From the NCBI GenBank assembly GCA_017503725.1, contig JAFVSL010000003.1:72272-136271 (forward strand): 64,000 nucleotides of DNA, in the 5' to 3' direction. Shown in pieces: positions 16,111 through 56,726 of this stretch; the first letter of the stretch is position 1; each line of letters opens with the position of its first letter. The notes beneath the pieces were generated by a model, which did no database searches, was not told where the DNA came from, and was given only the letters and a program-made list of their open reading frames with translations. A program made the position numbers and the translations under genes. The DNA is from Alphaproteobacteria bacterium (lineage in GTDB: Bacteria; Pseudomonadota; Alphaproteobacteria; Rs-D84).

Positions 16111-16878
16111 ATGCGTGTTGATACCATGCGTATCATGGAAATATTTGTAGTTGTTTTAATTATAGGACTGTTTGGTTTATTTATTAAATCAATTGGTAGT
16201 GCTGCTGGAAAAAGTTATACTATAAATATCTGGCCCAAAAGATATGATGAAAGATTAAATGAAATAACATCCGAAGAACGCGGAACTTGGTCAGAACGAA
16301 AACTGATTAGCGCTTTACTTGATTATGGTATTCCACCCAAGGCAATATTTCATGATTTATATGTAAAAAATGGAAAGTACGGTTTTTCGCAGATAGACGT
16401 TGTTGTCGCGACAAAAGTGGGTTTGATTGTCTTTGAAGTAAAAGATTATTCTGGTTGGATTTTTGGTAAGGGGCATCAAAATCAGTGGACTCAGAGTTTC
16501 TATGACAAATATAACCACGAAAAACATACATATCGTTTTTATAATCCTGTGTTGCAAAATGAAGCGCATGTCAAAGTTTTACAAAAACAATCCAAACAAT
16601 TCGCAAGCTTACCGTTTTATTCTGTGGTTGTTTTTTATGGTGACAGTGAATTAAGAGATATTAGTTTTATACCAAATGGAACGTTTGTTGTAAAGCCACA
16701 TAGGTTGGGTGATGTGTTAGATGTCATTTTAGATAATGACGATGCAGAATATACAGATAAATACGAAGTTATGCGAATTTTAAAATCTGCCGTTGACAAT
16801 GGGAATGATACAGATACTCAAACCGAGCACGCAGAAAAAATTAAAGATATGTTGGGAAAAGATAGGGTATTAGATTAA
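16111..16878 (+). CDS. NERD (nuclease-related) domain protein with N-terminal TM
   Basis: FSQIDVVVATKVGLIVFEVKDYSGWIFG ... YNPVLQNEAHVKVL typical of the NERD domain; sits in low-GC region. Confidence 0.65.
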   Translation: MRVDTMRIMEIFVVVLIIGLFGLFIKSIGSAAGKSYTINIWPKRYDERLNEITSEERGTWSERKLISALLDYGIPPKAIFHDLYVKNGKYGFSQIDVVVATKVGLIVFEVKDYSGWIFGKGHQNQWTQSFYDKYNHEKHTYRFYNPVLQNEAHVKVLQKQSKQFASLPFYSVVVFYGDSELRDISFIPNGTFVVKPHRLGDVLDVILDNDDAEYTDKYEVMRILKSAVDNGNDTDTQTEHAEKIKDMLGKDRVLD

Positions 16879-18895: not shown

Positions 18896-19855
18896 TTAAA
18901 CAACCTCTGTAACGGCGCGCAGGGCCCCGTCGCGTGATAATTGAACAACGCGGATTTTCTTTTTCATTTCCGCGATTAAATCTGTGCGATCATATGCCGG
19001 CTGGGTGTGCAAGATGCGATCTGCGAATGCGGCGTATGCGGCCTCGGCACTTTCGGCGTGAATAGTGGTATAGAAATGGTCGTGTCCCGTTCCCAACATT
19101 TCCCACAAAATAGACGCGTTGTCGGTTGATATTTCCCCGCCAATAATAACGTCCGGGGTCATACGCACAACCAAATCCAGCAATCGTGCATAGTTCATAT
19201 CATTTGTCTGTTCGGTACGCGATAATACAAAGTGTACGCGATTTTGTTGTGGTACACGTATTTCGCGCGCGTCTTCGACGGTGATAACGCGACTGTTTTT
19301 ATCTATCAGTGTCAGCATATGGTTTAAAAACGTCGTCTTTCCGGTTGCGGTCGCACCACTAATTAAAATCGGACTGCCGTCATTGATTGCGCTCATCAGT
19401 CTTTCGTACGGGTCGTCTGGGCGAACATTTTCGCGTGGTTTAACCTTTAACAACGGACGCCCCCGTTCCAGGTGATAGTTTTCAAAACTGGTTTCCGGTG
19501 CGCCACCACCGCGAATATTCATTGCCACCCCGCCGGTGACATCGTTTTCATCGTATTGAACGTTTGGTCCCGCAATGGCGGTAAATCGATGGTTGCCGGG
19601 TAATGTTGCGTATACGACCGGCATTCCGTGAATTGGGTCAAATGGACGTTCGTAAATATTTGCAACCGTGTGAATAAGGTCGATTAAATACTGTTTGGAT
19701 AAAACTTCTGCCTGGTACGACACCCAGGGCACACGCGCCCCGTGCAGGCGCATCCAAACCTCGCCCGCGTGGTTGATTGCGATTTCTTCTACAAACGATG
19801 GTTTATAGAATTCTTCCAGTGGACGCAACAAAGATTCTAATACTACATTTGACAT
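18896..19855 (-). CDS. VirB11/TrbB/CpaF-family secretion ATPase (orphan)
   Basis: Walker A ILISGATATGKTT, hexameric secretion-ATPase architecture, 319 aa; no other T4SS genes nearby. Confidence 0.7.
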   Translation of the reverse strand: MSNVVLESLLRPLEEFYKPSFVEEIAINHAGEVWMRLHGARVPWVSYQAEVLSKQYLIDLIHTVANIYERPFDPIHGMPVVYATLPGNHRFTAIAGPNVQYDENDVTGGVAMNIRGGGAPETSFENYHLERGRPLLKVKPRENVRPDDPYERLMSAINDGSPILISGATATGKTTFLNHMLTLIDKNSRVITVEDAREIRVPQQNRVHFVLSRTEQTNDMNYARLLDLVVRMTPDVIIGGEISTDNASILWEMLGTGHDHFYTTIHAESAEAAYAAFADRILHTQPAYDRTDLIAEMKKKIRVVQLSRDGALRAVTEVV

Positions 19856-30619: not shown

Positions 30620-30648
30620 TTGACATTTATTTAAAAATATGATATACT
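30620..30648 (+). promoter_or_regulatory. near-consensus sigma70 promoter (TTGACA-17-TATACT)
   Basis: Exact -35 hexamer, 17 nt spacer, TATACT -10; followed within 30 to 90 nt by two intrinsic terminators. Confidence 0.55.
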
Positions 30649-30674
30649 TGACACCATCAAAGACATAAATAATG

Positions 30675-30741
30675 CCCACAACAACTGTTGGGGATTTTTT
30701 TTGTCTGTTTTTTAGCCGCACATTTTTGTGCGGTTTTTTTT
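30675..30741 (+). terminator. tandem intrinsic terminators (CCCACAAC-loop-GTTGGGG-T8, then GCCGCACA-loop-GTGCGG-T8)
   Basis: Two GC hairpins each followed by T8 on the plus strand, lying between promoter and RBS of the hydrolase gene. Confidence 0.6.
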
Positions 30742-30775
30742 ATTTGTCACAAATCATATGGGGGGATTTTCAGAA

Positions 30776-31186
30776 ATGAATCTAAGACTGATAAAGAATC
30801 CAGACGAAACGAAAAAGTTATCATATCAAATTGCGCGTGTTGTTTATGCGGAAACATCCGCATCATCACTGACCGCGGTCGAGGCACTGGTATCAATGAT
30901 AAACAATGCATCACGTGCCAGCGGCAGAAGTTTCGCACAAATAATATCTGATACCGATATGTTTGAATCATTAAATGAAACATCCGTTCGTCACGAAATG
31001 TTATCGGTTCCCCCACTTTCACGCGGATTTCAAATGTGCTTGCGGGTTGTTGGTCGAATGCTGATGGGTGGGTTGCCGGATATGTGTCGTGGTGCAACAC
31101 GCTTTCATCACGGTGATGTAAATCCAGATTGGGCACGTTCACGTGGGTATATATTGGATATTGATGAATTACTGTTTTATTTATAA
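30776..31186 (+). CDS. SleB-like cell-wall hydrolase (Hydrolase_2 family), probable endolysin
   Basis: IARVVYAE...ALVSMINN...FHHGDVNPDWARSRGYI matches the SleB/Hydrolase_2 consensus; followed by holin-like gene. Confidence 0.6.
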   Translation: MNLRLIKNPDETKKLSYQIARVVYAETSASSLTAVEALVSMINNASRASGRSFAQIISDTDMFESLNETSVRHEMLSVPPLSRGFQMCLRVVGRMLMGGLPDMCRGATRFHHGDVNPDWARSRGYILDIDELLFYL

Positions 31187-31199
31187 GTGGAAATAAAAA

Positions 31200-31397
31200 A
31201 TGAACAAGTTTTACAAGGGCGGATTCCTAAGCGGCTATCGAACATATATTATGTCATCGGTTGGAATCTTGTCGGCGATTGCGGCCTATGCGGTCGGGGA
31301 CAGTGATATTTTCATAACACTGCAAAGTATTTTTACATTGGGTGGAATTTTCTTTTTACGCAAATCGAATGAACCAAAGGATAAATCAAATGGATAA
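31200..31397 (+). CDS. holin-like small membrane protein (2 TM)
   Basis: 65 aa, two hydrophobic helices, charged C-terminus, immediately after the hydrolase. Confidence 0.5.
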   Translation: MNKFYKGGFLSGYRTYIMSSVGILSAIAAYAVGDSDIFITLQSIFTLGGIFFLRKSNEPKDKSNG

Positions 31398-32046
31398 AGT
31401 TCCAGAAAAATTTTTAAACGAAGACGGTACATTAAATGCAGATGCATTGATGAAATCTTATTCAGAACTTGAACGCAAAATCGGAACAATGATAACGGTG
31501 CCGACCGATGGGTGTGATGAAAGTGTTCGTGCGCGCTTTAATCGCGCGATTGGTGTGCCGGAAACATCTGATGAATATCCAACAAATGAAATATTTGATG
31601 ATGAAAATTTGAAAAATAAATTTCACGAAATTGGATTAACATCAACCCAGGTTGAAAAAATTTATGATATTGCAAATGAATTTCTTGCACCTGTGATATC
31701 AGATTTATATAACACGCAAAATGAAAAAGATGCACTTGCAGAATTAAAAAACTTTTTCGGTGGAACGGAAAAAATGAATGATGCATTGCGTGCAATAGAT
31801 GCGTTTGGTAAAAAGTTTTTACCCGCCGATGCATTTGATGAACTGTGCTCCTCGCCCCAGGGAATCCAAGGGATTTATCGTATGATGCAATCAATGGAAC
31901 CAAATGTTGAAACCGAAAAAAATGAAATAAAAAATTTAACGGATTCAGATTTACGACGTATGATGCGTGATCCAAAATATTGGCGTGATGGCGATGCAGA
32001 ATACATACGCAAAATAGAAAATGGTTTTAAAAAATTATATTCATAA
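31393..32046 (+). CDS. putative phage scaffolding protein (T7 gp9 position)
   Basis: Acidic helical 218 aa protein immediately upstream of the capsid module; assignment by position and composition only. Confidence 0.4.
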
Positions 32047-32155
32047 GAAAAAAAATTCACTTTCTTCTTTACTAATTTTTGATATTCATATAAAATACCA
32101 AGTAAGAACAAAACAAATTTGTTCTATCCAAAAAATAGAAGAGAAGGAGAGAAAT

Positions 32156-32635
32156 ATGGTCTTTGGCCTGTTCAAAAAATCTGCAAAGAAAGCAGTTGTA
32201 AAACCAGCCGCAAAACCGGTTGCAAAAAAAGAACCTGCAAAGAAAGCGCCAGCAAAGAAAGTTGCTGCAAAAAAGCCAGCTGCAAAACCAGTTGCAAAGA
32301 AAGCACCTGCGAAAAAAGTAGTTGCAAAACCAGTTGCAAAGAAAGCACCTGCAAAAAAAGTAGTTGCAAAACCAGTTGCGAAAAAAGCACCTGCAAAAAA
32401 AGTAGTTGCAAAACCAGTTGCGAAAAAAGCACCAGCGAAAAAAGTAGCGGTTAAAAAACCAGTTGCGAAAAAAGCACCAGCGAAAAAAGTAGCGGTTAAA
32501 AAACCGGTTGCAAAAAAAGCACCTGCGAAAAAAGTAGTTGCAAAACCAGCAGCGAAAAAAGTTGCAGTTAAAAAAGTTGCTGCAAAACCAGTTGCAAAGA
32601 AAGCGTGTGCAAAAAAATGTGCAAAAAAGAAATAA
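32156..32635 (+). CDS. histone H1-like / AlgP-like lysine-alanine-rich repeat protein
   Basis: About 20 tandem [14 protein letters not shown] repeats encoded by 45 nt DNA repeats; RBS GAGAAGGAGAGAAAT. Confidence 0.65.
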
Positions 32636-32853
32636 TATAATTTCTTAACGCTATTAACCCGAACGATTGTTCGGGTTTTTCTTTTGAAAATTTCAGTCAG
32701 ATGAAATATACAGTCTGACTGAATTTTTTATTGCGGACAAGTCTTGCCACCCCGCATTTATTTTATGTTTACGGCGCATTTATTGCATAACCGTTTCATA
32801 AAATCGTCGCGCAAATTGCGCATTTTTCATTTAACCAAACAAAGGAAATAAAT

Positions 32854-33681
32854 ATGTCCGTTTCAATTGATCAGGTCTTCGTAAAGCAATTCGAGGCCGA
32901 TGTTCATTTGGCCTATCAACAGATGGGCACAAAACTGCGTTCAACCGTTCGCAGCAAATCAGGTGTTGTTGGCGCATCTACCACATTCCAAAAGGTTGGT
33001 CGTGGCACCGCCAGCACAAAATCACGTCACGGTATTGTACCGGTAATGAATTTGAACCACGAACCTGTGGAATGTATGTTAACTGATTACTATGCGGGTG
33101 ATTGGGTTGATGCATTGGATGAATTAAAGGTAAATATTGATGAACGCCGTGTTGTTGCGTCTGCTGGTGCGTATGCCCTGGGGCGCAAGACAGACGAATT
33201 GATTATCGATGCAATGAACACATCAACATTGTCTGTTGGTGATTATACAACCGGCTTGACCAAAGATTTGATTTTATCAGCGGTTGAAATTTTAAACACA
33301 AACGATGTCCCAGATGATGGTCGTCGCTTTGCGGTTATTGGCGTACACCAGTGGAATGAACTGTTGTCGATGGATGAATTTGTATCGGCCGATTATGTTG
33401 GTGATGCAAATCCATTGGTAAATGGTTTTGAGGCAAAAAAATGGTTGGGTATTACATGGGTTCTGCATAACGCATTGCCGGTATCCCAAACGAACCGAGA
33501 TTGCTTTATCTATCACGCGTCCAGCGTTGGGCACGCCTGTGGCCAGGAAGTAAAAACAGACATTTCTTGGCACGGTGAACGTGCGGCGCATTTCATCAGC
33601 AACAGTATGTCCCAGGGTGCCGTTTTAATCGACAATGACGGTATCGTTCGTGTCAAATGTTCTGATGCGCCCGCTGCCTAG
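32854..33681 (+). CDS. phage major capsid protein, T7 gp10-like (short form)
   Basis: TKLRSTVRSKSGVVGASTTFQKVGRGTA parallels T7 gp10 TSRHMVRSISSGKSAQFPVLGRTQAAY; 275 aa. Confidence 0.7.
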   Translation: MSVSIDQVFVKQFEADVHLAYQQMGTKLRSTVRSKSGVVGASTTFQKVGRGTASTKSRHGIVPVMNLNHEPVECMLTDYYAGDWVDALDELKVNIDERRVVASAGAYALGRKTDELIIDAMNTSTLSVGDYTTGLTKDLILSAVEILNTNDVPDDGRRFAVIGVHQWNELLSMDEFVSADYVGDANPLVNGFEAKKWLGITWVLHNALPVSQTNRDCFIYHASSVGHACGQEVKTDISWHGERAAHFISNSMSQGAVLIDNDGIVRVKCSDAPAA

Positions 33682-33719: not shown

Positions 33720-33953
33720 ATGGCATTTCAAAATAAAAATCTGTCGGTGATTGCGTATGCAAATGGCTTTACATTGTGGCATTATGCATCTGCAACAGAA
33801 ACTATTGCGACGATTTCTGCGACCGGCTTTTTCAATGATGTTAAAACATTGATGAATATTGGTGATGTTGTAATTATCAACGCGTCTGATAACACCGCAA
33901 TCAAGAAAATAAACATCACGGCCAGCAACGTCACAACCGGTGCATTGGCATAA
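33720..33953 (+). CDS. hypothetical small protein in capsid-tail module
   Basis: 77 aa ORF with RBS AAGGATAAAT; function unknown. Confidence 0.4.
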   Translation: MAFQNKNLSVIAYANGFTLWHYASATETIATISATGFFNDVKTLMNIGDVVIINASDNTAIKKINITASNVTTGALA

Positions 33954-34026
33954 TAATTTATTATCGTCAAATGGTGGTGCAATTTTGCACCACCAATATT
34001 TTTTATTAACAACAGTGGGGGCAATT

Positions 34027-34545
34027 ATGCTTACAAAAATAGATTTATGTTCAATGGCGCTATTAAAACTGGGGGAACAACCAATTCAGTCTTTCAGTGA
34101 CGATACCGCCACCGCACAGTTGGCACGAACCTTATTTGATCCCATAACAGATGCATTGATTGCGTCGCATCCGTGGCGTTTTGCAACCCGTCAATTAACA
34201 TTGACCAAAAATTCAGATGGTGATTTCCTGATTCCATCAGATGTTTTACGGGTACTGAAATCGGGCGGTGATATTGTTGGTAACAAGATTGTTGCACCAA
34301 CAGATAACCTGACAATAACGGCCTGTACGCGTGTTGGGGTTGATATGTTTCCGGGCTATTTTGTGTCATTGGTGGCGACAAAATTGGCGATGGAATTTTG
34401 TATCCCGCTTTCTGGTGACCAGACCGTGTTCAGAATGCTGGCGGCGCTTTATGAATCAGAATTACAGTCTGCAAAATTCATCGACAGCACAACCGCACCC
34501 GGTGCAAAAATAGACAATTTTTCGTTAATAAATGCACGGTTTTAA
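34027..34545 (+). CDS. tail tubular protein A, T7 gp11-like
   Basis: LLKLGEQPIQSFSDDTATAQLARTLFD...SHPWRF parallels T7 gp11 ILASIGEPPVSTLEGDA...RGWTF. Confidence 0.65.
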   Translation: MLTKIDLCSMALLKLGEQPIQSFSDDTATAQLARTLFDPITDALIASHPWRFATRQLTLTKNSDGDFLIPSDVLRVLKSGGDIVGNKIVAPTDNLTITACTRVGVDMFPGYFVSLVATKLAMEFCIPLSGDQTVFRMLAALYESELQSAKFIDSTTAPGAKIDNFSLINARF

Positions 34546-36272
34546 TGGGGGGCAAAATGGCAAATTTTATTAAAACACAGAATTCTTTTGCCCACGGTGT
34601 GGTGTCATCTGAGTTTTTTACGCGTGATGATATTAACGGATTGTCGTGCCTTGAAAATATGGATGTTTTGCCGGGGGGCGGTCTGACGCGTCGTCGCGGA
34701 TTAGCACATATTGCGAATTTACCGGGTGTTGCACGCCTGGTGCCATTTTCTGTATCGGAAACAGAAAACTATGTCTTGGCAATAACATCGGTGCATATAA
34801 TTATTTATTCTGGTACGCAGATGATGGGCGACTTGTTTGCGCCCTGGGGGGCGGACGATTTGTCGCGCCTGCAATACGCCCAGCGTTTTGACACAATGAT
34901 ATTTGTGCACCCAGATTATCGTCCGCAAATTTTGAAAAAAACCGAAACAGGCTTTGAATTGGGTGACTTTATATTTGCGCGCAATGATGCCGATATGTCG
35001 ATGAATATTCCGTTTATGCGGTTCGAGGATACGTCTGATATAAAAATTTCAGTCAGCACCAGTGACCGAGGCAACAACTATGCTAAATTCACGACCAGTT
35101 CAGATTTCTGGACCCCTGAATATGTGCGAACACGCTTTATGCTGTTGGACCGTCAGTGGATAATTGATGAATACATCAGTCCGACCGAGGTTATCGCATA
35201 TGTCAACGGTACATACACCGCGCCCGGCGCGCCGGTAACCGATTGGTTTGAATCCGCGTTCAGCACCCCGCGTGGCTGGCCGTGCAGTATAACATTTCAC
35301 CAAGATCGATTGGTTTTTGGTGGTTCGCGTTCCTATCCGGCGGGCGTATGGATGTCCCGTGTTGGTCAACATAAAAACTTTAACGTTGGCACCGGTCTGG
35401 ATGACGAAGCAATTTTTATAACCCTGCTGTCCCAGCAGCGACAACAAATTTGTACCGTGGTCAGTGGCGATAATCTTCAAATTCTGACCACTGATGGCGA
35501 ATGGGCGATTTCCAGCAAACCATTAACCCCATCGGTCGTTGATATAAAACAGCACACGTCCGTTGGATCTTGTGCATCAAGATATTTACCACCCCAGAAG
35601 ATAGAAGACGCCACCATATTCGTGTCCAAGACAATGCGTGATATTCGCGAATTGTCTTTGGATGATTTGGGTGAAAATTATAACGCAACTGATTTATGCG
35701 CATTTGCCAAGCATTTGATGACATCGCCGGTGGATATGGCGTACAACGATGCAACCCGGCAATTATTCGTGGTCCAATCAGACGGTAATATGGCTGTCTT
35801 GAACCAGAATGGGGCATTGGGGATATCGGCGTGGGCCGAATACAAAACATATGGCAAATTTATATCTGTAACGGTTGTAGACGGGAAAACATATGTCGTA
35901 TCGCTGCGTGATGATGCGTATAACATTGAATGTTTTTCAGATTCTGTGATGCGGGATGCAGATAAATATGATTTTGCATACCAGGCGGCGTCTTTGCCAT
36001 TTCGTGTGTCTCATCATAATGTGTCGCGTTTGCGCATTCGCCGGGTGTCACTGCGCCTGCTGAATACTAAATCAGTATTTATAAATGGCGCGCGTGCCAC
36101 ATTGCCAAATGAAATTTATTCAGAAAATCATCCGGGTTATTCGGGTGACGTGTCTGTAAATTTGCTGGGTGGATGCCTATCGTGTTTGTCGCCATATTGG
36201 ACCATACACGGAAACGAGCCCCAGCCAATAACGGTTTTATCTGTTTGTGTGTCCGGCGGATACAGTGTTTAA
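34545..36272 (+). CDS. tail tubular protein B, T7 gp12-like (shortened)
   Basis: N-terminus FIKTQNSFAHGVVSSEFFTRDDINGLSCLENMDVLPGGGLTRRRG parallels T7 gp12 IKNLKGGISQQPDILRYPDQ...ETEGLQKRP. Confidence 0.65.
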   Translation: MGGKMANFIKTQNSFAHGVVSSEFFTRDDINGLSCLENMDVLPGGGLTRRRGLAHIANLPGVARLVPFSVSETENYVLAITSVHIIIYSGTQMMGDLFAPWGADDLSRLQYAQRFDTMIFVHPDYRPQILKKTETGFELGDFIFARNDADMSMNIPFMRFEDTSDIKISVSTSDRGNNYAKFTTSSDFWTPEYVRTRFMLLDRQWIIDEYISPTEVIAYVNGTYTAPGAPVTDWFESAFSTPRGWPCSITFHQDRLVFGGSRSYPAGVWMSRVGQHKNFNVGTGLDDEAIFITLLSQQRQQICTVVSGDNLQILTTDGEWAISSKPLTPSVVDIKQHTSVGSCASRYLPPQKIEDATIFVSKTMRDIRELSLDDLGENYNATDLCAFAKHLMTSPVDMAYNDATRQLFVVQSDGNMAVLNQNGALGISAWAEYKTYGKFISVTVVDGKTYVVSLRDDAYNIECFSDSVMRDADKYDFAYQAASLPFRVSHHNVSRLRIRRVSLRLLNTKSVFINGARATLPNEIYSENHPGYSGDVSVNLLGGCLSCLSPYWTIHGNEPQPITVLSVCVSGGYSV

Positions 36273-36661: not shown

Positions 36662-37210
36662 ATGCATAAAATCTCTTACATAGCAGATGGTGTCACGACT
36701 GAATTTGAATTTGCATTTCCATTTTTTCAGGCGGCAGATATCCGCGTCGCCAAGAACGAGGTCATTTTAACCACTGATGAATATTCAGTTGTTGAAAATG
36801 TATCTTTTGATGGTGGACGTGTTGTGTTTAATGTTGCGCCCACCGCGGACACACGTATTGATATCTATCGCGTTGTCGCATTGTCGCGCGTCATAGATTA
36901 TCAGCCAACCGCAAAAATAGACCCAGAACATCTAAATTCGGACTTTAATTTTTTAATCGAGGCCCTAAAAGACCTTCACGCACCCGATGTTGATATCGAG
37001 GCCTGGCGTAACACGCACACAAACGTGGTGAATTTCTTGGAATATACGAACAGTCTAATCCAAGATAAATTAACCGGTGGCGGTGTGCTGGGGATTTATC
37101 GCAATTTAATAGCGGTGCTGGATAACGCATTACCAAATCTGATTAACGACTATGGATACATTACGGATTCGGCCGACGACGCCACGTGCGACGATTACGG
37201 ATTATTGTAA
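36662..37210 (+). CDS. tail fiber N-terminal (tail-attachment) domain only, T7 gp17-like
   Basis: YIADGVTTEFEFAFPFFQAADIRV parallels T7 gp17 YQLDGSNRDFNIPFEYLARKFVVV; only 182 aa, no distal receptor-binding domain. Confidence 0.55.
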   Translation: MHKISYIADGVTTEFEFAFPFFQAADIRVAKNEVILTTDEYSVVENVSFDGGRVVFNVAPTADTRIDIYRVVALSRVIDYQPTAKIDPEHLNSDFNFLIEALKDLHAPDVDIEAWRNTHTNVVNFLEYTNSLIQDKLTGGGVLGIYRNLIAVLDNALPNLINDYGYITDSADDATCDDYGLL

Positions 37211-37214
37211 TTTT

Positions 37215-37793
37215 ATGGATACGTGGAACCATACCCTGGGGCAGACAACACCCACACACCACCGTAAAATAATGGAATTTCTGGTGGATGTTCTGGGGGA
37301 CGATATGCACCGGGGACTGCTGATGGCGTTTCGACATTCGGGCAAATCGACCGTTGTCGGGATTTTTGCAGCGTGCACATTGTACCTGTTCCCGTGTACG
37401 CGCATACTGATTTTGTCGGCGCACACGACATTGGCATCGCGAATGGTCGGGCATATCAGACATATCTTGGAAAATCATCCCTGGTGTGCGGATTTATTGC
37501 CCACATCGCGTCGTGATTGGTCGTCGGGACACATTACTATCAACCGACCAATAGGCATACGCGAACCATCTGTAATATGCCAGGGCATCCACGGCAACAT
37601 CACCGGAATGCGCGCAGATTTAATAATCTGCGATGACGTAGAGGTGCCAAACACATCAAACACCCCGCAAAAGCGTGAAAATCTGCGTGAAAGATTACGT
37701 GAACTGGATTTTATCTTGTCGCCCACGGGCACGATGATTTACATCGGTACACCACACACAATGGATACGATTTATCGTACCAGCGATGACTAG
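37215..37793 (+). CDS. terminase large subunit, N-terminal ATPase part (split gene)
   Basis: Walker A FRHSGKST, Walker B LIICDDVE, coupling motif IYIGTPH; ends at a stop without a nuclease domain. Confidence 0.65.
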   Translation: MDTWNHTLGQTTPTHHRKIMEFLVDVLGDDMHRGLLMAFRHSGKSTVVGIFAACTLYLFPCTRILILSAHTTLASRMVGHIRHILENHPWCADLLPTSRRDWSSGHITINRPIGIREPSVICQGIHGNITGMRADLIICDDVEVPNTSNTPQKRENLRERLRELDFILSPTGTMIYIGTPHTMDTIYRTSDD

Positions 37794-38446
37794 GCGTTAT
37801 CTTCGGCTTTTACCGAACTGATAAACGTGCGCAACCGCCCCAACAGTTCGTTTCCTGCATCCCCAAACATCGGCAGGTATGTTTCATATTCTGGCATATC
37901 GGCCTGGATTTCTGCGCGTGCACGTTCATCCAGTGGTGCGTTAATAATTTGATTCGCCGTATCCCACAATTGATACGCGCGATATGTTTTTGTAACGACC
38001 GCCCATTGATTTTGCATATCCGGATGCTTGTCCAGTGCATCGTGAATTGCGTTTGCCCATTCTTCGCCAAATCTGCGTACCACATTAAGGCCACGTATAC
38101 GATTCAGGCCGTCTGGATCGGGGGTAAAAGAATTTAACACAGATTGTAATTCAGAAATATCTTTCTGGGACAAAATGGTGTCGGTCACACTGGATTGTGT
38201 CATCAATCCACCATATGGAATCAATTCTGGTTCAATGGAATCCATTGGTGTTTTGCCACTGCGCAGATTTTCAATATGCCGGATAAGCATTTTACCGGTT
38301 GGCATTTCGCGCAACTCTTTGATTACGTCATCGGTGGCCTCGTCTATAAAGACTGGGTTAATCGCAGACCATCCGCCAACGATAACGTGTTCCTGGCGAT
38401 AAAGGTTTAACAATCTTTGTGCCGTGGCGGCGATACGTGCTTTCAT
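37790..38446 (-). CDS. hypothetical protein
   Basis: 218 aa ORF in the block interrupting the terminase. Confidence 0.45.
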   Translation of the reverse strand: MKARIAATAQRLLNLYRQEHVIVGGWSAINPVFIDEATDDVIKELREMPTGKMLIRHIENLRSGKTPMDSIEPELIPYGGLMTQSSVTDTILSQKDISELQSVLNSFTPDPDGLNRIRGLNVVRRFGEEWANAIHDALDKHPDMQNQWAVVTKTYRAYQLWDTANQIINAPLDERARAEIQADMPEYETYLPMFGDAGNELLGRLRTFISSVKAEDNA

Positions 38447-38480
38447 AATGTGCCTCTCTCTCCGGTATTATGTTGATGAA

Positions 38481-39488
38481 TTATTCCATCACAATCATAA
38501 CAACTTTGTGCATTGTTTGCGCGTTAATTTTTTCTTCTGGGCTGGATATTTGACCGTATATTTTCCCTTTGGAATCTTGACGTACACTAACAATTTGCGC
38601 GTTGACGGTTGTTTCTGAATCCAATGCATCAAAGTCCGTATCAATGCATACCGCCAAATCGCCCGCCACAATTGGTGCATCTACATCGGCAAATACGTAT
38701 GATTTTTCAGGGATAAATCCGCCCAAGCGCTTTGAATTTGGCATAACCGCGTAAATACCACTGCGGCCCTCTAATGACATTGGGGCAACAATCATCGTTT
38801 TGTCAGATTTTTTAAACGCAATTGATTTACCAGACGGCATACCGAACACCGGGACCAGTTTTTTGCGTGCACTGTCATACAATTTTGCGCCATACAAGCC
38901 GCCACTCATATCAATGCCAGATAATGGGTTGCCCGGTTCCAGTACGGATTTAACGCGTTCCTTGACCTTGTTAATCTGTTTGTTTAATTCGCCGCTTTTA
39001 TACAGGGTTGCGATTTTATCAAACATACTTTCGACCGTCATCGCGAACGATTGTGCCAATGGTTCAATTTCATTTTCATAGATTTCGCGTTGTCCAACCT
39101 CGATTTTATGATACACAGACAATGTCATACCGGCATCTTTGGCGGCACGTGCGATAGTTTTTCCAGATTGCTGGCGAATTTTGCGCAGACCACTGCCGAA
39201 AATTTTCAGGCCACCATCTTCGTTATCATTCAGACGGCGTTTGATTTCGGTTTGCCATTGTTCTGCAACCTCGTCAGATTCTTTGATGAAAATGTCGGAC
39301 AGTTTGCACCCCAAGATATTACAGATATTCAGCAACTGTTTCTGGTTCAAGCGGCGTACACCCTTTTCAATTTTTGAAACCGCGGACAGGGACAAACCCG
39401 CGCGTCGCGCCAGTTCCGTCATCTTCATCCCATTTTTCAGGCGGATGTTTCTGATATTATTTGGAAAAATAATTTCTTCTTGGGCCAT
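38481..39488 (-). CDS. XRE-family transcriptional regulator with two HTH domains and CI/LexA-like C-terminal domain
   Basis: Two Cro/C1-type HTH segments (MTELARRAGLSLSAVSKIEKG; IARAAKDAGMTLSVYHKIEVG) plus C-terminal beta-rich domain. Confidence 0.6.
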   Translation of the reverse strand: MAQEEIIFPNNIRNIRLKNGMKMTELARRAGLSLSAVSKIEKGVRRLNQKQLLNICNILGCKLSDIFIKESDEVAEQWQTEIKRRLNDNEDGGLKIFGSGLRKIRQQSGKTIARAAKDAGMTLSVYHKIEVGQREIYENEIEPLAQSFAMTVESMFDKIATLYKSGELNKQINKVKERVKSVLEPGNPLSGIDMSGGLYGAKLYDSARKKLVPVFGMPSGKSIAFKKSDKTMIVAPMSLEGRSGIYAVMPNSKRLGGFIPEKSYVFADVDAPIVAGDLAVCIDTDFDALDSETTVNAQIVSVRQDSKGKIYGQISSPEEKINAQTMHKVVMIVME

Positions 39489-39563
39489 TGTGCAACTCCT
39501 TAAAAACTATAATCTTGACAAAATAATAGTCAATTTTTAAGGCTTGCGCAAGTAAATAATCAC

Positions 39564-41120
39564 TTACAGTGGCATATCATCCGGGATTGCATCGATATCA
39601 ATTGGCGTTGGTGAAAATTCAGATCCATCCAATGGTATGCTGGCGGTTGGTTGTGATGTGACGTTTTCACCACGTGTGTCAAATTCATCCGGCAGATTGT
39701 CGAACAAACTGTAATCGCCAAAGAATGCGGTGCGTACGGTTTCCGGACGTCCGTGACGGTTTTTTCCGATGATAATATCGGCCTTGCCACGGGATTGTTC
39801 GTAACGTTTTTGCCACGATTCCACCATTGCGGAATTTGTTGTGTTTGAAATTCTTTCTGATGGATTACGGTTCGCCAGATAGTATTCTTCGCGGTACGTA
39901 AACATAACAATGTCGGCGTCTTGTTCAATAGATCCAGATTCACGCAAGTCCGCCAATTGTGGACGTTTGTCATCGCGCTGTTCAACGCTACGTGACAACT
40001 GTGACAGGGCAATTACCGGCACATCCAATTCCTTGGCCAGCATTTTTAGCCCTCGTGTAATTTCGGAAATTTCTTGGACACGGTTGTCGCTGCGCTTGCC
40101 ACCGGGGGACGTCATCAATTGCAGATAGTCCACCACAATCAACGCAATTCCACCATATTTCCGTGCCAGGCGTCTTGCACGTGTGCGCATCATCGGTACC
40201 GACATACCCGGCGTATCATCAATGCACAGTGGAATCTTGCTGATTGCGTCGGCGTATTGTGTCATTTTAAGCATATCTTCATCCGTCAGGTTTCCTTCAC
40301 GCATTGCGGATGCGGGCACCTTGGACTGGGATGATAAAACACGTGCCGCTAATTGGGAATGCGACATTTCAAGACTGAAAAATACGACGGCGCCCTTGTA
40401 ATTTTTATTGGCCGTGCCATAGTGTATTGCATTTGCCGCATTAAACGCGATATTCATCGCCAACGTGGTTTTACCCATCGCCGGACGACCCGCTACGATA
40501 ATTAAATCCGAATGGTGCAGACCACTGATTGATTTATCCAGCGCCGTCAGTCCCGTTGTCAGACCCGATAATTGCCCGTCGGCCTTGTACGCGGTTTCGG
40601 CTTCCCTTAATGCGGCCTGTAATGCGGTTGCGATTGAAACAACGTCACGTTCGGACGAACCCGTGGTTGCCATATCGAATAATTTCTGTTCGGCAACCTC
40701 TATTTGTCGATTAACTGGATTGTCCAGGTCTTCGACAAATGCGCCATCCATAATATCCTGGGCCAGGTTGATTAACTGTCGTCTTTGTGCATGTTCGTAT
40801 ACGATGCGACCATATTGTTCAACGTTAACAACGGTTGCCCCCGCACCCGATAATTGGGTCAGGTAATCCACACCACCCACCGATTCCAAGACCCCCTGTT
40901 GGTCCAGATAGTTTTTAGCGGTAATAATATCGAACGGGATACCGGCGGCAAATTGACGTTCCGCCAGTTTATAAATTTCCTGGTGTGCGGGATGCGAAAA
41001 GTGTTCCGCATTCAAGAATTCTGACACACGTTCCAACGCGCGATTATTCATCAACACCGCGGCCAGTACGGCCTGTTCTGCTTCCAGATTGGTTGGCAAA
41101 GTCTTAGGGGTAAAATCCAT
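39564..41120 (-). CDS. dnaB: replicative DNA helicase DnaB
   Basis: DnaB N-domain NLEAEQAVLAAVLMN, Walker A AGRPAMGKTT, RecA-like core; start set at MDFTPKTL; acidic C-terminal tail of about 60 aa. Confidence 0.8.
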   Translation of the reverse strand: MDFTPKTLPTNLEAEQAVLAAVLMNNRALERVSEFLNAEHFSHPAHQEIYKLAERQFAAGIPFDIITAKNYLDQQGVLESVGGVDYLTQLSGAGATVVNVEQYGRIVYEHAQRRQLINLAQDIMDGAFVEDLDNPVNRQIEVAEQKLFDMATTGSSERDVVSIATALQAALREAETAYKADGQLSGLTTGLTALDKSISGLHHSDLIIVAGRPAMGKTTLAMNIAFNAANAIHYGTANKNYKGAVVFFSLEMSHSQLAARVLSSQSKVPASAMREGNLTDEDMLKMTQYADAISKIPLCIDDTPGMSVPMMRTRARRLARKYGGIALIVVDYLQLMTSPGGKRSDNRVQEISEITRGLKMLAKELDVPVIALSQLSRSVEQRDDKRPQLADLRESGSIEQDADIVMFTYREEYYLANRNPSERISNTTNSAMVESWQKRYEQSRGKADIIIGKNRHGRPETVRTAFFGDYSLFDNLPDEFDTRGENVTSQPTASIPLDGSEFSPTPIDIDAIPDDMPL

Positions 41121-41145
41121 GTCAAAATCCTTTTCCTTAACGCCA

Positions 41146-41985
41146 ATGGTATATGAAAAAAATGCTTTTTCAATGCCTTTTTTATCGGGATATAAAATAT
41201 TGAAAATTCCGATAGTTGACGCCAATGGTACGCCCGCGTGGCCGGAACTTTTCCCGATTGAAAAGGTTGCCCAGATGCGGCAAATCGTCGGCCCCCGGCA
41301 TTTTTCAGCACAAATGATGCTGGAATTTGTGCCACCTGAACGTATTCGTCTGGACCCGGGGCAAATACATTTCTATGAATATATGCTGGATATTCATTCG
41401 GCACGTCTGGGGCCGCATTTGATAACGGGTGCGTCTGTGTATTGGGATCCGTCCACCGGCCGCCATAAATCAGACCACAGTGTTTGTGTTCTGATATATC
41501 GTGATGATAAAAATCATAATGTTTTTATACACGATGTTATGTATATGACGGTTTCTGATACCGAAACCCACCCCTTGAATGCCCAGTGTGAACGGGTGAT
41601 TGATTTTATGCACCGATACGGTATGCGCCGAATAACAATCGAGACAAATGGACTGGGCAATGCATTGCCGGAAATAATGCGCGATGTGGCGGTGCGTCGG
41701 GGTCAAAACATATACGTAAATAAAATCACTAATAACCGGAACAAGTCCGACAGAATCTTGGATGCGATTGAACCCCTGCTGACCTCGGGGCACCTGTATG
41801 CCAATATGCGTGTGCAACATACGCCACTTTTGTCGGAAATGTTGGGTTGGTCACCCGTTGGCGGGGTGGGGCACGATGACGGCTTGGACGCGATTGCGGG
41901 TGCGATTGCGCAAACGCCGATTGTCCTGCGTCCGTCCGGGGGGATGTCCCGTCCAGTTTATGCAAATACAAATTTCACAATATAA
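41146..41985 (+). CDS. terminase large subunit, C-terminal nuclease part (split gene)
   Basis: RNaseH-like nuclease motifs VYWDPSTGRHKSDHSVCVLI and GHDDGLDAIAGAI; start uncertain (41119-41173). Confidence 0.65.
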   Translation: MVYEKNAFSMPFLSGYKILKIPIVDANGTPAWPELFPIEKVAQMRQIVGPRHFSAQMMLEFVPPERIRLDPGQIHFYEYMLDIHSARLGPHLITGASVYWDPSTGRHKSDHSVCVLIYRDDKNHNVFIHDVMYMTVSDTETHPLNAQCERVIDFMHRYGMRRITIETNGLGNALPEIMRDVAVRRGQNIYVNKITNNRNKSDRILDAIEPLLTSGHLYANMRVQHTPLLSEMLGWSPVGGVGHDDGLDAIAGAIAQTPIVLRPSGGMSRPVYANTNFTI

Positions 41986-54596: not shown

Positions 54597-56726
54597 ATGA
54601 AAAAGATAGTTTTACTGACTTTTCGTTGCCTTGTGACATCCGTCGTGCTCGCGGTTGTTGGTGGTTCTGGTTCAATGGGTGGAATCATCACTGGATGTAC
54701 GGGGTATGACACTATGTTGAATTGTAACAGCACATCGGATCCCTATACGTGCTATTGGGGATATACGCGCAAATATACTGGTGGACAGCCGTCGTACAAT
54801 TGTTATGAATGTACCAATTTGCCATTGGCGGATAATATCCTGGTATCCAGTAATACAGAGACTCAACCTACAATTTCTTGGCTAACCGCTAAAACAGAAT
54901 ACGTTGACCCCTATGGCAATTATCGTGAATTTCCTAACGTGGATGGTTTTTGCCCAATTTTGGTTTCGTGTCCCGCCGGGTATGGATTAAAACTTTATAT
55001 AAACCCAAAATGCAATACGTTAAATGCGGTGTCAGACTGTCGTTATCAGATTAGTTGTGAAGAGTGTGCTATGGGAACATTTGATCGTGAAACCCGATTG
55101 GTGCGTTTATATGCGCCCAGCGCCCTTGAGGATTATGGACTGTATTACGTTCGTGGTCAGTTTGATGATATTGATGGGACCAGTACTTTTATACTAGATA
55201 ATACGGATATGGTTGACAGTAAAATATACGGCTGTGGCGCGTGTGGGGCTAATGCTCATGTAAATACAGATGGCAATAATTGTGACTGTGACGATGGATA
55301 CAGATACTATGATATTGCCGGTCGGGCGATCACCACAAATATTGGGGAACGCGATTGTGTGCCACGTACATACAAAATATATTTGAATACTGGTACCTCT
55401 GCATCCAGTAGCAGTCCGTATATAAACTATCGGCCCGGCACGGGATACGATTTAGATTTAGATGGTGTATACGGTGACGATGGGACCAGTTTGGATTCCG
55501 TTGTAACCGTTACAGTGCCCAAGCAAAATTTTACTGGTTGGTATTTTTGCCCAATGATTACTGGTATTGGTGCGACTATTTGTGGGAATCCAATGTGGTC
55601 AACAAATTCATTTAGCAACAGTGATGATATCATTACCACTTGTAACGGTATTACGCAGTGCAGTATAGACGAATATGATGCAATAAACTTATACAGACAA
55701 TATTCTTGGAAAACTTATACGGTAAAATATGCCGATGGTTCCAATAAAACGAAAACGTGTACATATAATTCAGACTGTAAGATTGATTATACACCGACAA
55801 CCACTATTCCCGGTGGTCAGTTGTTTAAAAACTGGACATATCCCGGTTTTGTGATAAACGTTGGTGATAACATCAAGACCATTGAACAATCGCAACCCAG
55901 TGAATTTAGCAGTAATCAGATTAGCCTTGGCGTCAGTTATACGGAATGTCCGGCCGGCTATTATTGTAAAAATAATGTTCAAACCGAATGTCCCGCGGGC
56001 CACTATTGCCCGGGCGAGACCGCAACCCCAATCCCGTGTGAGGGGGGATATTATTGCCCGGCAAAAAGTGAATCCCAAACAGAGTGTCCCGCGGGCCACT
56101 ATTGCCCGGGCGAGACCGCAACCCCAATCCCGTGCGAGGGGGGATATTATTGCCCGGCAAAAAGTGAATCCCAAACCGAATGTCCCGCGGGCCACTATTG
56201 CCCGGCCAATACCGTAACTCCAATCCCGTGCGATGGCGGATATTATTGCCCGGCAAAAAGTGAATCCCAAACAGAGTGTCCCGCGGGTCACTATTGCCCG
56301 GCCAAGACCACAACCCCAATTCCGTGCGATGATGGGGCATATTGTCCCGCCGGCAGTGCTGCCCCAAACCAGTGTCCCGGGGGGTACTATTGTTCGGAAA
56401 AAAGTTCGGAACCGATTCCGTGCGATGGCGGATATTATTGTCCCGCCGGCAGTGCCACCCAAACACCGTGTAATGTTGGGTATTATTGCCCGGTAAAAAG
56501 CGCCACCCAAACACCGTGCGATAGCGGCTATTATTGCCCAGCAGAATCCGCAGAAATGAAAAATTGTCCCGTTGGCACAACCAGTGATGCTGGACGTTCC
56601 GGTGTTGCCGGTGCCAAGGCCGCAACCGATTGCTATGTCAGTGATATGACCAAATTCAAAGACAGTGGTTTTAGTTTTACCCTGCCAATAACATCGGGAA
56701 CCGTGAAATACAAGGGCAGGGGTTAA
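54597..56726 (+). CDS. large secreted cysteine-rich tandem-repeat protein (GCC2/GCC3-like CPxGxYC repeats)
   Basis: N-terminal signal/TM; about 12 repeats of ECPAGHYCP(G/A)xTxTPIPC(E/D)GGYYCPAKSESQT; near-identical 90 bp DNA repeats 55940-56560. Confidence 0.7.
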   Translation: MKKIVLLTFRCLVTSVVLAVVGGSGSMGGIITGCTGYDTMLNCNSTSDPYTCYWGYTRKYTGGQPSYNCYECTNLPLADNILVSSNTETQPTISWLTAKTEYVDPYGNYREFPNVDGFCPILVSCPAGYGLKLYINPKCNTLNAVSDCRYQISCEECAMGTFDRETRLVRLYAPSALEDYGLYYVRGQFDDIDGTSTFILDNTDMVDSKIYGCGACGANAHVNTDGNNCDCDDGYRYYDIAGRAITTNIGERDCVPRTYKIYLNTGTSASSSSPYINYRPGTGYDLDLDGVYGDDGTSLDSVVTVTVPKQNFTGWYFCPMITGIGATICGNPMWSTNSFSNSDDIITTCNGITQCSIDEYDAINLYRQYSWKTYTVKYADGSNKTKTCTYNSDCKIDYTPTTTIPGGQLFKNWTYPGFVINVGDNIKTIEQSQPSEFSSNQISLGVSYTECPAGYYCKNNVQTECPAGHYCPGETATPIPCEGGYYCPAKSESQTECPAGHYCPGETATPIPCEGGYYCPAKSESQTECPAGHYCPANTVTPIPCDGGYYCPAKSESQTECPAGHYCPAKTTTPIPCDDGAYCPAGSAAPNQCPGGYYCSEKSSEPIPCDGGYYCPAGSATQTPCNVGYYCPVKSATQTPCDSGYYCPAESAEMKNCPVGTTSDAGRSGVAGAKAATDCYVSDMTKFKDSGFSFTLPITSGTVKYKGRG

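Follow-up and report, generated by a model that had tools for sequence, protein, structure and literature searches.

We analyzed a 64,000-nt stretch of the genome of a gut alphaproteobacterium of the Candidatus Enterousia / Rs-D84 group (contig JAFVSL010000003.1, positions 72,272 to 136,271 of the forward strand; hereafter the window, whose own numbering is used below) and, within it, a gene for a lysine- and alanine-rich (K/A) repeat protein inserted between the scaffolding and capsid genes of a T7-type, phage-derived gene module. With moderate confidence, we interpret this gene as an autonomously expressed cargo gene of the type known in phages as a moron, whose polycationic product would bind and act on cellular DNA; it would be a later addition and no original component of the virus-like particle. 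This reading is favored by five features of the gene: (i) the anatomy of its cassette, (ii) the behavior of the scaffold-capsid junction as a cargo slot, (iii) the absence of the gene from related phages, (iv) its replaceability, and (v) its survival in one decayed module. The open reading frame (ORF) with its conservation, the arrangement of the cassette, and the absence of the gene from the phage relatives are direct observations. The gene, its repeat array, and its two structural neighbors are the following.

32156-32635, + strand: K/A-repeat protein gene, 159 aa, net charge +58, isoelectric point 11.1, 16.3 kDa
32265-32604, + strand: tandem DNA repeat array, 42-nt period, 8.0 copies, 87% matches, score 414 (Tandem Repeats Finder)
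31342-32046, + strand: T7-type scaffolding protein gene, PF05396, phrog_3742, product with net charge -12
32854-33681, + strand: major capsid protein gene, PF19821 at 247 bits, phrog_3437, product with net charge -10

The original prediction had placed a 159-aa Lys/Ala repeat protein between scaffold and capsid genes, and the family assignments of the two flanking genes bear this out. The K/A gene starts with the ATG at 32156, six bases past AAGGAG (32144-32149), and its stop codon ends at 32635. The product (K 37%, A 28%, V 17%, and P 12%) begins with the motif MVFGLFKK; repeats composed of K, A, P, and V run from about residue 9 to the end of the protein, which closes with a 12-residue motif. 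The repeat array is present as expected, but its predicted period of 45 nt is not the dominant one: the 14-aa (42-nt) unit occurs three times exactly and is followed by two 15-aa units, the only ones that measure 45 nt.

Orthologs were identified by synteny, as sequence similarity search barely recovered them, in loci L001-L080, which are the best 80 of 262 confirmed capsid relatives among the GTDB species representatives. All 80 come from gut metagenome-assembled genomes (MAGs) assigned to Candidatus Enterousia or to uncultured Alphaproteobacteria, and their capsid proteins are 85-100% identical in amino-acid sequence. In 14 pairwise ortholog comparisons, the K/A genes differ at 71 first, 172 second, and 459 third codon positions, with 352 synonymous and 215 non-synonymous codon changes. 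Between the window and its closest relative, L001, the flanks of the gene are identical, the substitutions within it are mostly synonymous, and all indels are multiples of three (12, 3, 3, 3, and 3 nt). Since the substitutions fall mainly at third codon positions and the indels are all in frame, the ORF is genuinely coding, and the same pattern indicates that purifying selection maintains its frame and composition.

Several other readings of this locus were rejected. A 204-aa ORF starting at the upstream ATG 32021 shows no conservation upstream of M46. Both this start and a scaffold-K/A fusion by frameshifting are contradicted by stop codons that close the K/A frame about 20 codons upstream in most orthologs, and by a ribosome-binding site (RBS) and ATG at the MAF/MVF start that are invariant among orthologs. 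The alternative frames over the repeats (111 aa on the forward strand and 86 aa on the reverse strand) are at odds with the codon-position pattern and the conserved ends.

The codon choice of the K/A gene (GCA, GTT/GTA, and CCA) resembles that of rpsD, unlike that of ligA, recG, parC, and the tail and portal genes, and its G+C content at third codon positions (GC3) is 0.18 versus 0.25-0.54 in the neighboring genes. Such codon usage is compatible with high expression.

Eighty orthologous proteins vary from 72 to 164 aa and from +24 to +60 in net charge, with a composition of K 37%, A 31%, V 14%, and P 11%, and their lysine content is confined to 33-43%. The strongest repeat period differs by species (5, 9, 10, 14, 15, 16, 19, 20, or 24 aa), which suggests that the repeats have been reshuffled again and again. 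The expectation that the DNA repeats would make copy number unstable thus agrees with the differences in protein length and unit length between species. On the other side, the identical 159-aa product of the window was called independently on five contigs from other assemblies. Both ends of the protein are conserved: a hydrophobic N-terminal motif (MAF.F[LF]K, as in MAFLFKK or MVFGLFKK), a KKK (or KRK) end, and, in 73 of the 80 orthologs, one to four cysteines, usually in a C-terminal CAKK.CAKKK motif and in a few lineages near the N-terminus.

The gene is enclosed by a set of predicted signals that give its cassette a moron-type anatomy, namely a promoter of its own, a 5' stem-loop, a strong RBS, the ORF, and two or three tandem terminators. 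In the window these signals, together with a motif preceding the capsid gene, are located as follows.

32068-32096, + strand: predicted sigma-70-like promoter of the K/A gene, TTTACT, 17-nt spacer, TAAAAT (consensus scan)
32105-32125, + strand: inverted repeat AGAACAAA-N5-TTTGTTCT at the predicted mRNA 5' end, a stem-loop or an operator
32144-32150, + strand: ribosome-binding site AAGGAGA (direct sequence reading)
32656-32685, + strand: predicted intrinsic terminator 1, G+C-rich hairpin followed by a T-run
32685-32736, + strand: predicted intrinsic terminator 2, conserved hairpin TCAGTCAGA...TCTGACTGA followed by a T-run
32771-32792, + strand: conserved motif GGCGCAT..TTGCATAACC upstream of the capsid gene

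In an alignment of 39 orthologous upstream regions, CTTTACTA of the promoter is invariant and ATAAAAT nearly so, and GGAGAG of the RBS is invariant as well. The arms of the inverted repeat are invariant in 37-39 of the 39 loci, and its loop changes in both length (N3-7) and sequence. Arms that do not vary leave no room for covariation; the variable spacing between them suits a 5'-terminal stem-loop better than an operator of fixed geometry. Downstream of the gene, the segment 32630-32740 has a folding z-score of -6.4. At the position of terminator 1, the orthologs have a hairpin of variable sequence followed by a T-run, and in terminator 2 the pairing is kept through two-sided changes in 10 of 13 pairs (alignment of 39 loci); some species have a third hairpin with a T-run. 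A consensus scan found no sigma-70-like promoter between these terminators and the capsid start, an interval (32737-32853) that holds the conserved motifs GGAYAATCC, GACCC, and GGCGCAT..TTGCATAACC. Neither inverted pattern was found a second time in the window, nor was the capsid-upstream motif. The AGAACAAA/TTTGTTCT inverted repeat has its one exact match and three sites with three mismatches, none of them a second copy; the TCAGTCAGA/TCTGACTGA inverted pattern has a single match; and a search with the capsid-upstream motif consensus, allowing three mismatches, returned only its own site, so that no shared operator was detected. Rfam gave no match above threshold for this region.

A second unit of similar design precedes the upstream block of phage-derived genes.

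30620-30745, + strand: promoter, leader, and tandem terminators ahead of the lysis and scaffold genes (consensus scan and alignment)

It opens with a promoter close to consensus (TTGACA-17-TG-TATACT, 30620-30648); a leader of about 28 nt, also conserved, and terminators at 30676-30702 and 30714-30745 come next, and these are followed by an RBS and the hydrolase ATG at 30777. An alignment of 24 loci shows the arrangement to be conserved, and 9 of its 11 pairs have compensatory changes; alternatively, the segment 30655-30745 could be a small RNA gene. As both phage-derived gene blocks lie behind a strong predicted promoter and tandem terminators, the layout resembles late-gene control by processive antitermination, of which lambda pR'-tR' with Q is the classic case. 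The terminators of the moron would then shield the late genes from its constitutive promoter, and an antiterminated polymerase would read through them. Antitermination control of a gene transfer agent (GTA) is reported in Caulobacter (PMC11150451).

This parallel gives some footing to the idea that the main function resides in the DNA or RNA and not in the protein. The predicted promoter and terminators would constitute a regulatory leader of the capsid operon, of the lambda pR'-tR' type, and the repeat ORF would be a fast-evolving passenger that is tolerated there. The covarying unit at 30620-30745, the Caulobacter precedent, and the failure to find a sigma-70-like promoter for the capsid operon are all consistent with such a leader. 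The idea accounts for the flanks but not for the protein: the codon-position pattern and in-frame indels point to purifying selection on the ORF; about 90 lineages have retained the start, the RBS, and the motifs at both termini; and the lysine content is kept within its narrow range. We consider it improbable, and what it says about the flanks is compatible with a K/A protein that acts on cellular DNA.

The distribution of the gene is nearly uniform. In all 65 genome loci with an intact scaffold-capsid interval, this interval contains exactly one K/A ORF, and no second K/A ORF was found elsewhere in those 65 loci or in the window. Among the 15 contigs that break off shortly before the capsid gene, 14 do so within K/A repeats (L007, L015, L028, L031, L034-L036, L048, L053, L061, L071, L072, L075, and L078). 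The K/A repeats are thus a frequent breakpoint of short-read assembly, and copy numbers in MAGs may be collapsed. Altogether, the gene is present in 79 of the 80 loci, the remaining contig being uninformative as it starts at the capsid gene. It is also present in IMG/VR contigs down to 79% capsid identity and in the distant lineages L230 (G+C content 0.55), L233, L235, L237, and L238 found by capsid protein search, all five of which have the same promoter, inverted repeat, and RBS as the K/A gene of the window. A scan of a metagenome collection for the signature KKACAKKK-stop gave true matches in capsid context only, apart from L225, where an apparent K/A gene lacks a capsid gene downstream. 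This candidate was set aside because its low-coverage contig is probably a chimera, in which the terminators, the motifs ahead of the capsid gene, and that gene's RBS and ATG are all retained and the sequence diverges only after them. One of the initial proposals was that a host nucleoid protein gene had been inserted by chance. The gene is indeed a self-contained insert that phage relatives lack. It is, however, no chance event of a single genome: the cassette, including its promoter, 5' stem-loop, and terminators, is fixed across the 79 loci, the IMG/VR contigs, and the more distant lineages.

The comparison with phages was made with the nearest phage-like relatives, namely pelagiphage Hodr, MT838907, L142/L143, and L185-L215. 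The K/A gene is absent from all phage-like relatives examined (capsid 45-68% identical), which retain the canonical order of intact terminase, portal, scaffold, and capsid genes. The earlier statement that T7 has nothing at this place is correct, and the nearest phage relatives likewise lack such a gene: their scaffold and capsid genes are either adjacent or separated by an unrelated gene. The gap between the two genes is 40 nt in pelagiphage Hodr, 20 nt in MT838907, and about 90 nt in L142/L143. Like a moron, the K/A gene thus separates two genes that are direct neighbors in phage relatives.

Other relatives have filled the same gap with other genes. The environmental phage-like relatives L196-L200 and L208 have a reverse-strand gene for a PilZ-domain protein between scaffold and capsid genes (L198:4321-4743(-), L200:2824-3264(-), and L208:4196-4615(-); also in L196 and L197), and the phage-like relative L195 has a membrane-protein gene there. 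Among the domesticated modules, the sub-clade of L158, L229, L231/L232, and L236 has intact capsid, scaffold, and tail genes and, in place of the K/A gene, a gene for a conserved polytopic membrane protein of about 190 aa.

L158:2121-2687, L229:4298-4867, L231:4289-4864, L236:4305-4874: slot membrane-protein gene

This gene has its own predicted promoter and terminators, and its product ends in KKK or KRK; the protein is unrelated to the K/A protein, has no Pfam match, and, in L158, is unrelated to the slot membrane protein of L195. From L158 alone, the K/A gene might be taken for a late addition made after domestication of the module. This was dropped, as L158 has sister lineages (L230 and L233) with the K/A gene; the gene thus dates from near the origin of the domesticated module, and one sub-clade has replaced it. 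The scaffold-capsid junction is, by these comparisons of gene order, a recurrent cargo slot in which the K/A gene is replaceable. A further case is the decayed module L043:5700-13500, where the scaffold gene is frameshifted, a deletion of about 5 kb joins residue 70 of tail tubular protein A to residue 72 of the terminase N-half, and the portal is cut at residue 103, with the K/A gene (112 aa), the capsid gene, and p77 intact; it comes from a single short-read MAG, may be a misassembly, and has limited weight.

These data bear on the proposal, made in the original prediction, that the K/A protein is a DNA condenser co-opted for packaging. A polycation of this kind, in effect a phage protamine, would enter procapsids, for example guided by its N-terminal motif or attracted electrostatically to the acidic scaffold and the acidic inner side of the capsid. 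It would then accompany packaged host DNA in a GTA-like particle and neutralize charge there, in analogy with T4 internal proteins or adenovirus protein VII. The gene keeps strictly to the scaffold-capsid junction, both in 79 of 80 loci and in the distant lineages, and no K/A copy was found in another context, which fits such a role. So do the opposite charges of the K/A protein (+58) and of the scaffold (-12) and capsid (-10) proteins, the lack of a terminator between the scaffold and K/A genes, the conserved N-terminal and cysteine motifs, and a module with a split terminase and no internal core genes of T7 size. On the other hand, the K/A gene is missing from all phage relatives examined, its product has no PHROG match, a predicted promoter of constitutive type and two to three terminators set it apart from the capsid operon, one sub-clade has a different gene in the slot of an intact module, and the gene is intact in the decayed module of L043. 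Moreover, terminase-driven packaging in tailed phages needs no condensing proteins. The proposal gained no support from the analysis, and we regard it as unlikely. Slightly less probable again is its most elaborate form, in which the K/A protein would be the dedicated protamine of an undescribed T7-type GTA-like particle in Rs-D84 gut alphaproteobacteria, acquired at domestication, targeted to procapsids through its N-terminal motif or the acidic scaffold, cross-linked through its terminal cysteines, and condensing host DNA in the head; if true, it would be the first histone-like packaging protein of a particle derived from a tailed phage.

The neighborhood of the gene raises the further possibility of an accessory role in lysis, in which the polycation would displace divalent cations of the outer membrane at lysis, like disruptin gp28 of podophage phiKT. 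Genes for endolysin-like and holin-like proteins lie 1 kb upstream in the same direction, no spanin was recognized, and the alternative cargo of the slot in one sub-clade is a membrane protein. Disruptin is a helical peptide of 56 aa, whereas the K/A protein, at 72-164 aa, is proline-rich and non-amphipathic; it has no signal peptide, and in the cytoplasm a protein of charge +58 would be sequestered by nucleic acids. A lytic agent made from a promoter of constitutive type would also endanger the cell, and unrelated cargo genes of one slot need not share a function, as the PilZ genes in relatives illustrate. Disruption of the outer membrane by a cationic peptide is documented (bioRxiv 10.1101/515445), yet for the K/A protein we rate such a role as very improbable, marginally more so than a regulatory leader with a passenger ORF.

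Database searches place the K/A protein by composition. It scores 49.5 bits (E = 7.2e-13) against the Pfam family HC2 (PF07382), above the gathering cut-off of 40 bits, a score that reflects composition, as model and query are both of low complexity, and is no proof of common descent. It remains under the curated cut-offs of the NCBIfam models for chlamydial Hc2 (NF038052, 34 bits versus 135) and for Burkholderia-type H1-like DNA-binding proteins (NF038053, 43.3 bits versus 80), and hence is no demonstrable member of either curated family. No linker-histone globular domain was found in the Pfam scan of the protein, which returned only HC2 and Extensin_1, and the PHROG families gave no match. 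A protein database search yielded compositional matches only and barely recovered the true orthologs; tblastn against the loci gave no matches, owing to composition-based statistics. The compositional matches are K/A-rich tails fused to DNA- or RNA-polymerase-binding proteins of the HU, DksA, RsfS, SWIB, and BlaI types. These tails and the HC2 score above threshold lend support to DNA binding. Judged by its sequence, the K/A protein is an intrinsically disordered polycation with about 37% lysine and Ala/Pro/Val spacers, H1/Hc2-like in composition and probably also in its mode of action, the neutralization of DNA charge.

Taking these features together, we infer promoter activity, high expression, DNA binding, and an action in the nucleoid rather than in a particle. 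The putative pathway would consist of three steps: (i) the K/A gene is transcribed strongly and constitutively from its own sigma-70-type promoter, (ii) the terminators stop these transcripts ahead of the capsid operon, and (iii) the protein, by neutralizing charge, attaches non-specifically to DNA or another polyanion and serves the cell as a nucleoid-associated compacting protein. The N-terminal hydrophobic motif and the C-terminal cysteine motif would probably mediate self-association, metal bridging, or contact with a partner.

Several observations weigh against an autonomous gene acting on cellular DNA. The cassette has been inherited together with the structural module since near the origin of the latter, and no free-standing K/A copy was found in the loci, in the window, or in the metagenome signature scan, which leaves some room for a role in particles. 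The conserved hydrophobic and cysteine motifs (the latter in 73 of 80 orthologs) go beyond what generic DNA binding requires and may indicate a specific partner. The lack of a terminator between the scaffold and K/A genes implies that the K/A gene would be co-transcribed with the lysis and scaffold genes too. The promoter and terminator calls are consensus matches for which conservation is the sole backing, and the argument from codon usage depends on a single ribosomal protein gene, rpsD. A tblastn search for HU gave no match in the window, a 64-kb sample that is uninformative on this point.

The module that carries the K/A cassette comprises, in addition to the scaffold and capsid genes, the following genes.

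30777-31186, + strand: cell-wall hydrolase (endolysin-like), weak PF07486 match, phrog_938 endolysin
31200-31397, + strand: 65-aa hydrophobic protein, holin-like by position and hydrophobicity only, no family match, present in all loci
33720-36272, + strand: p77 (phrog_18004), tail tubular protein A, and tail tubular protein B
37152-37793, + strand: N-terminal half of the T7-type large terminase, NF033889 model positions 1-190 of 500, 225 bits
41230-41985, + strand: C-terminal half of the T7-type large terminase, NF033889 model positions 221-500, PF22530, PF17289
42012-43241, + strand: T7-type portal protein, PF12236 at 284 bits

The tail tubular protein B gene is followed by further phage-type genes, p132 and then an N-terminal fragment of the T7 fibre gene (36662-37210), the latter absent from about 20 of 75 related loci. 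The two terminase halves are separated by 3.3 kb with three reverse-strand genes (37790-41225), which encode a 218-aa protein, an XRE-type regulator, and DnaB. The split is identical in all related loci, and the halves are conserved at a median identity of 76% and 63%; in the phage-like relatives L142/L143, the large terminase gene is in one piece. The order of the module, including the split terminase and the adjacency to birA, is identical in every locus that is long enough (61 or more with upstream DNA). The median identity to the window is 90% for the capsid protein (inflated by locus selection), 84% for the portal protein, 84% for DnaB, and 64% for BirA; the capsid and portal proteins are thus conserved as well as DnaB. 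The closest cultured relative of the module is a Pelagibacter podophage with 45% capsid identity. No polymerase, integration, or T7-size core genes were seen near the module in the window, and no spanin or prohead protease was recognizable. Extra DNA lies between the terminase C-half and the portal gene in L016, L033, L036, L037, L046, L061, and L079. Elsewhere, the window encodes a NERD nuclease-domain protein (16111-16878), a T2SSE-type ATPase (18896-19855(-)), and a 709-aa ORF without a Pfam match (54597-56726).

By these comparisons of gene order and sequence, the T7-type genes are no recent prophage but an anciently domesticated phage module that has been passed on vertically and keeps its synteny in at least 80 species. 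It is characteristic of GTAs that structural genes of phage origin occupy a fixed chromosomal site, are handed down vertically, and are subject to purifying selection; the module has these properties and may be a GTA-like element not described before. With its terminase split and no core or fibre genes recognizable, such an element may or may not work as a GTA.

Among bacterial chromatin proteins, the lysine-rich repeat proteins of H1/Hc2 type form a class that has been recognized but is still little understood. The hosts of the present one belong to a lineage with genome reduction: Candidatus Enterousia is placed in the order Rs-D84, for which reduction is reported throughout, and the Enterousia MAGs of the same study measure 0.75-1.0 Mb (PMC12306168). 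In genomes this small (about 0.75-1 Mb), where few non-essential genes are retained, the K/A protein, a bare polycationic tail, is a fixed cargo of a domesticated capsid module. Should it act on the nucleoid, a phage-style moron slot would supply a core chromatin protein to a whole bacterial group; should it be packaged, it would represent a new way of handling DNA in phage-derived particles. The module itself, a head-tail-lysis module of the T7/pelagiphage type with a split terminase, occurs in hundreds of gut alphaproteobacterial species and is apparently gated by tandem terminators. Literature searches found no description of a domesticated T7-type module with a split terminase, and it may be a new family of GTA-like elements in animal gut microbiomes.

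Among known systems, the module shares with the GTAs RcGTA, BaGTA, CcGTA, and FpGTA the vertical inheritance of phage-derived head, tail, lysis, and terminase genes under purifying selection. It differs in being of the T7/pelagiphage type and not of the HK97/RcGTA type, in having its terminase split by dnaB and two further genes, and in being known from its genes alone. We know of no K/A gene in other GTA clusters. The FpGTA of Faecalibacterium was called the first podovirus-like GTA-like element in a 2026 paper (PMC12946183).

In composition, the K/A protein matches the C-terminal tail of histone H1, chlamydial Hc2, and the tails of mycobacterial HupB. Its likeness to chlamydial Hc2 (HctB; PF07382, NF038052), a protein that condenses DNA, lies in small size, an extreme content of lysine and alanine, short lysine-rich repeats, and size variation by repeat number; it rests on composition, as the PF07382 threshold was passed and that of NF038052 was not. 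Hc2 is likewise a DNA-binding protein whose size varies via lysine-rich repeats, from 165 to 237 aa in C. trachomatis (PMC2848022). The K/A protein differs from it in the N-terminal MAF.F[LF]K and C-terminal CAKK.CAKKK motifs, in its alphaproteobacterial host, and in the location of its gene, which sits in a phage-derived capsid module and not among developmental genes. Bordetella BpH1, Pseudomonas AlgP, and the tails of mycobacterial HupB are K/A/P repeat polycations that bind DNA, and the K/A protein resembles them as well as the NF038053 proteins and the tails of Streptomyces DdbA/HupS. DdbA has an H1-like DNA-binding domain (PMC3643593). The K/A protein has no folded partner domain and consists of only a tail with two short terminal motifs.

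With the basic proteins inside virions (IPI-III of T4; protein VII and mu of adenovirus), which accompany packaged DNA, the K/A protein shares its basic character. In T4, a short sequence at the N-terminus serves to target the internal proteins. The K/A protein has no sequence relation to the T4 or adenovirus proteins, the module has no recognizable prohead protease, and the gene is absent from related phages.

Morons are independent transcription units inserted between phage genes (PMC3594210), and the K/A gene resembles them in lying between genes that are adjacent in relatives, in its own predicted promoter and terminators, in its deviant GC3, and in occupying a slot that also takes other cargo. 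Its carrier, however, is a vertically inherited domesticated module and no mobile prophage, and its cargo is a repeat polycation, whereas the usual products of morons are exclusion, virulence, or defence proteins.

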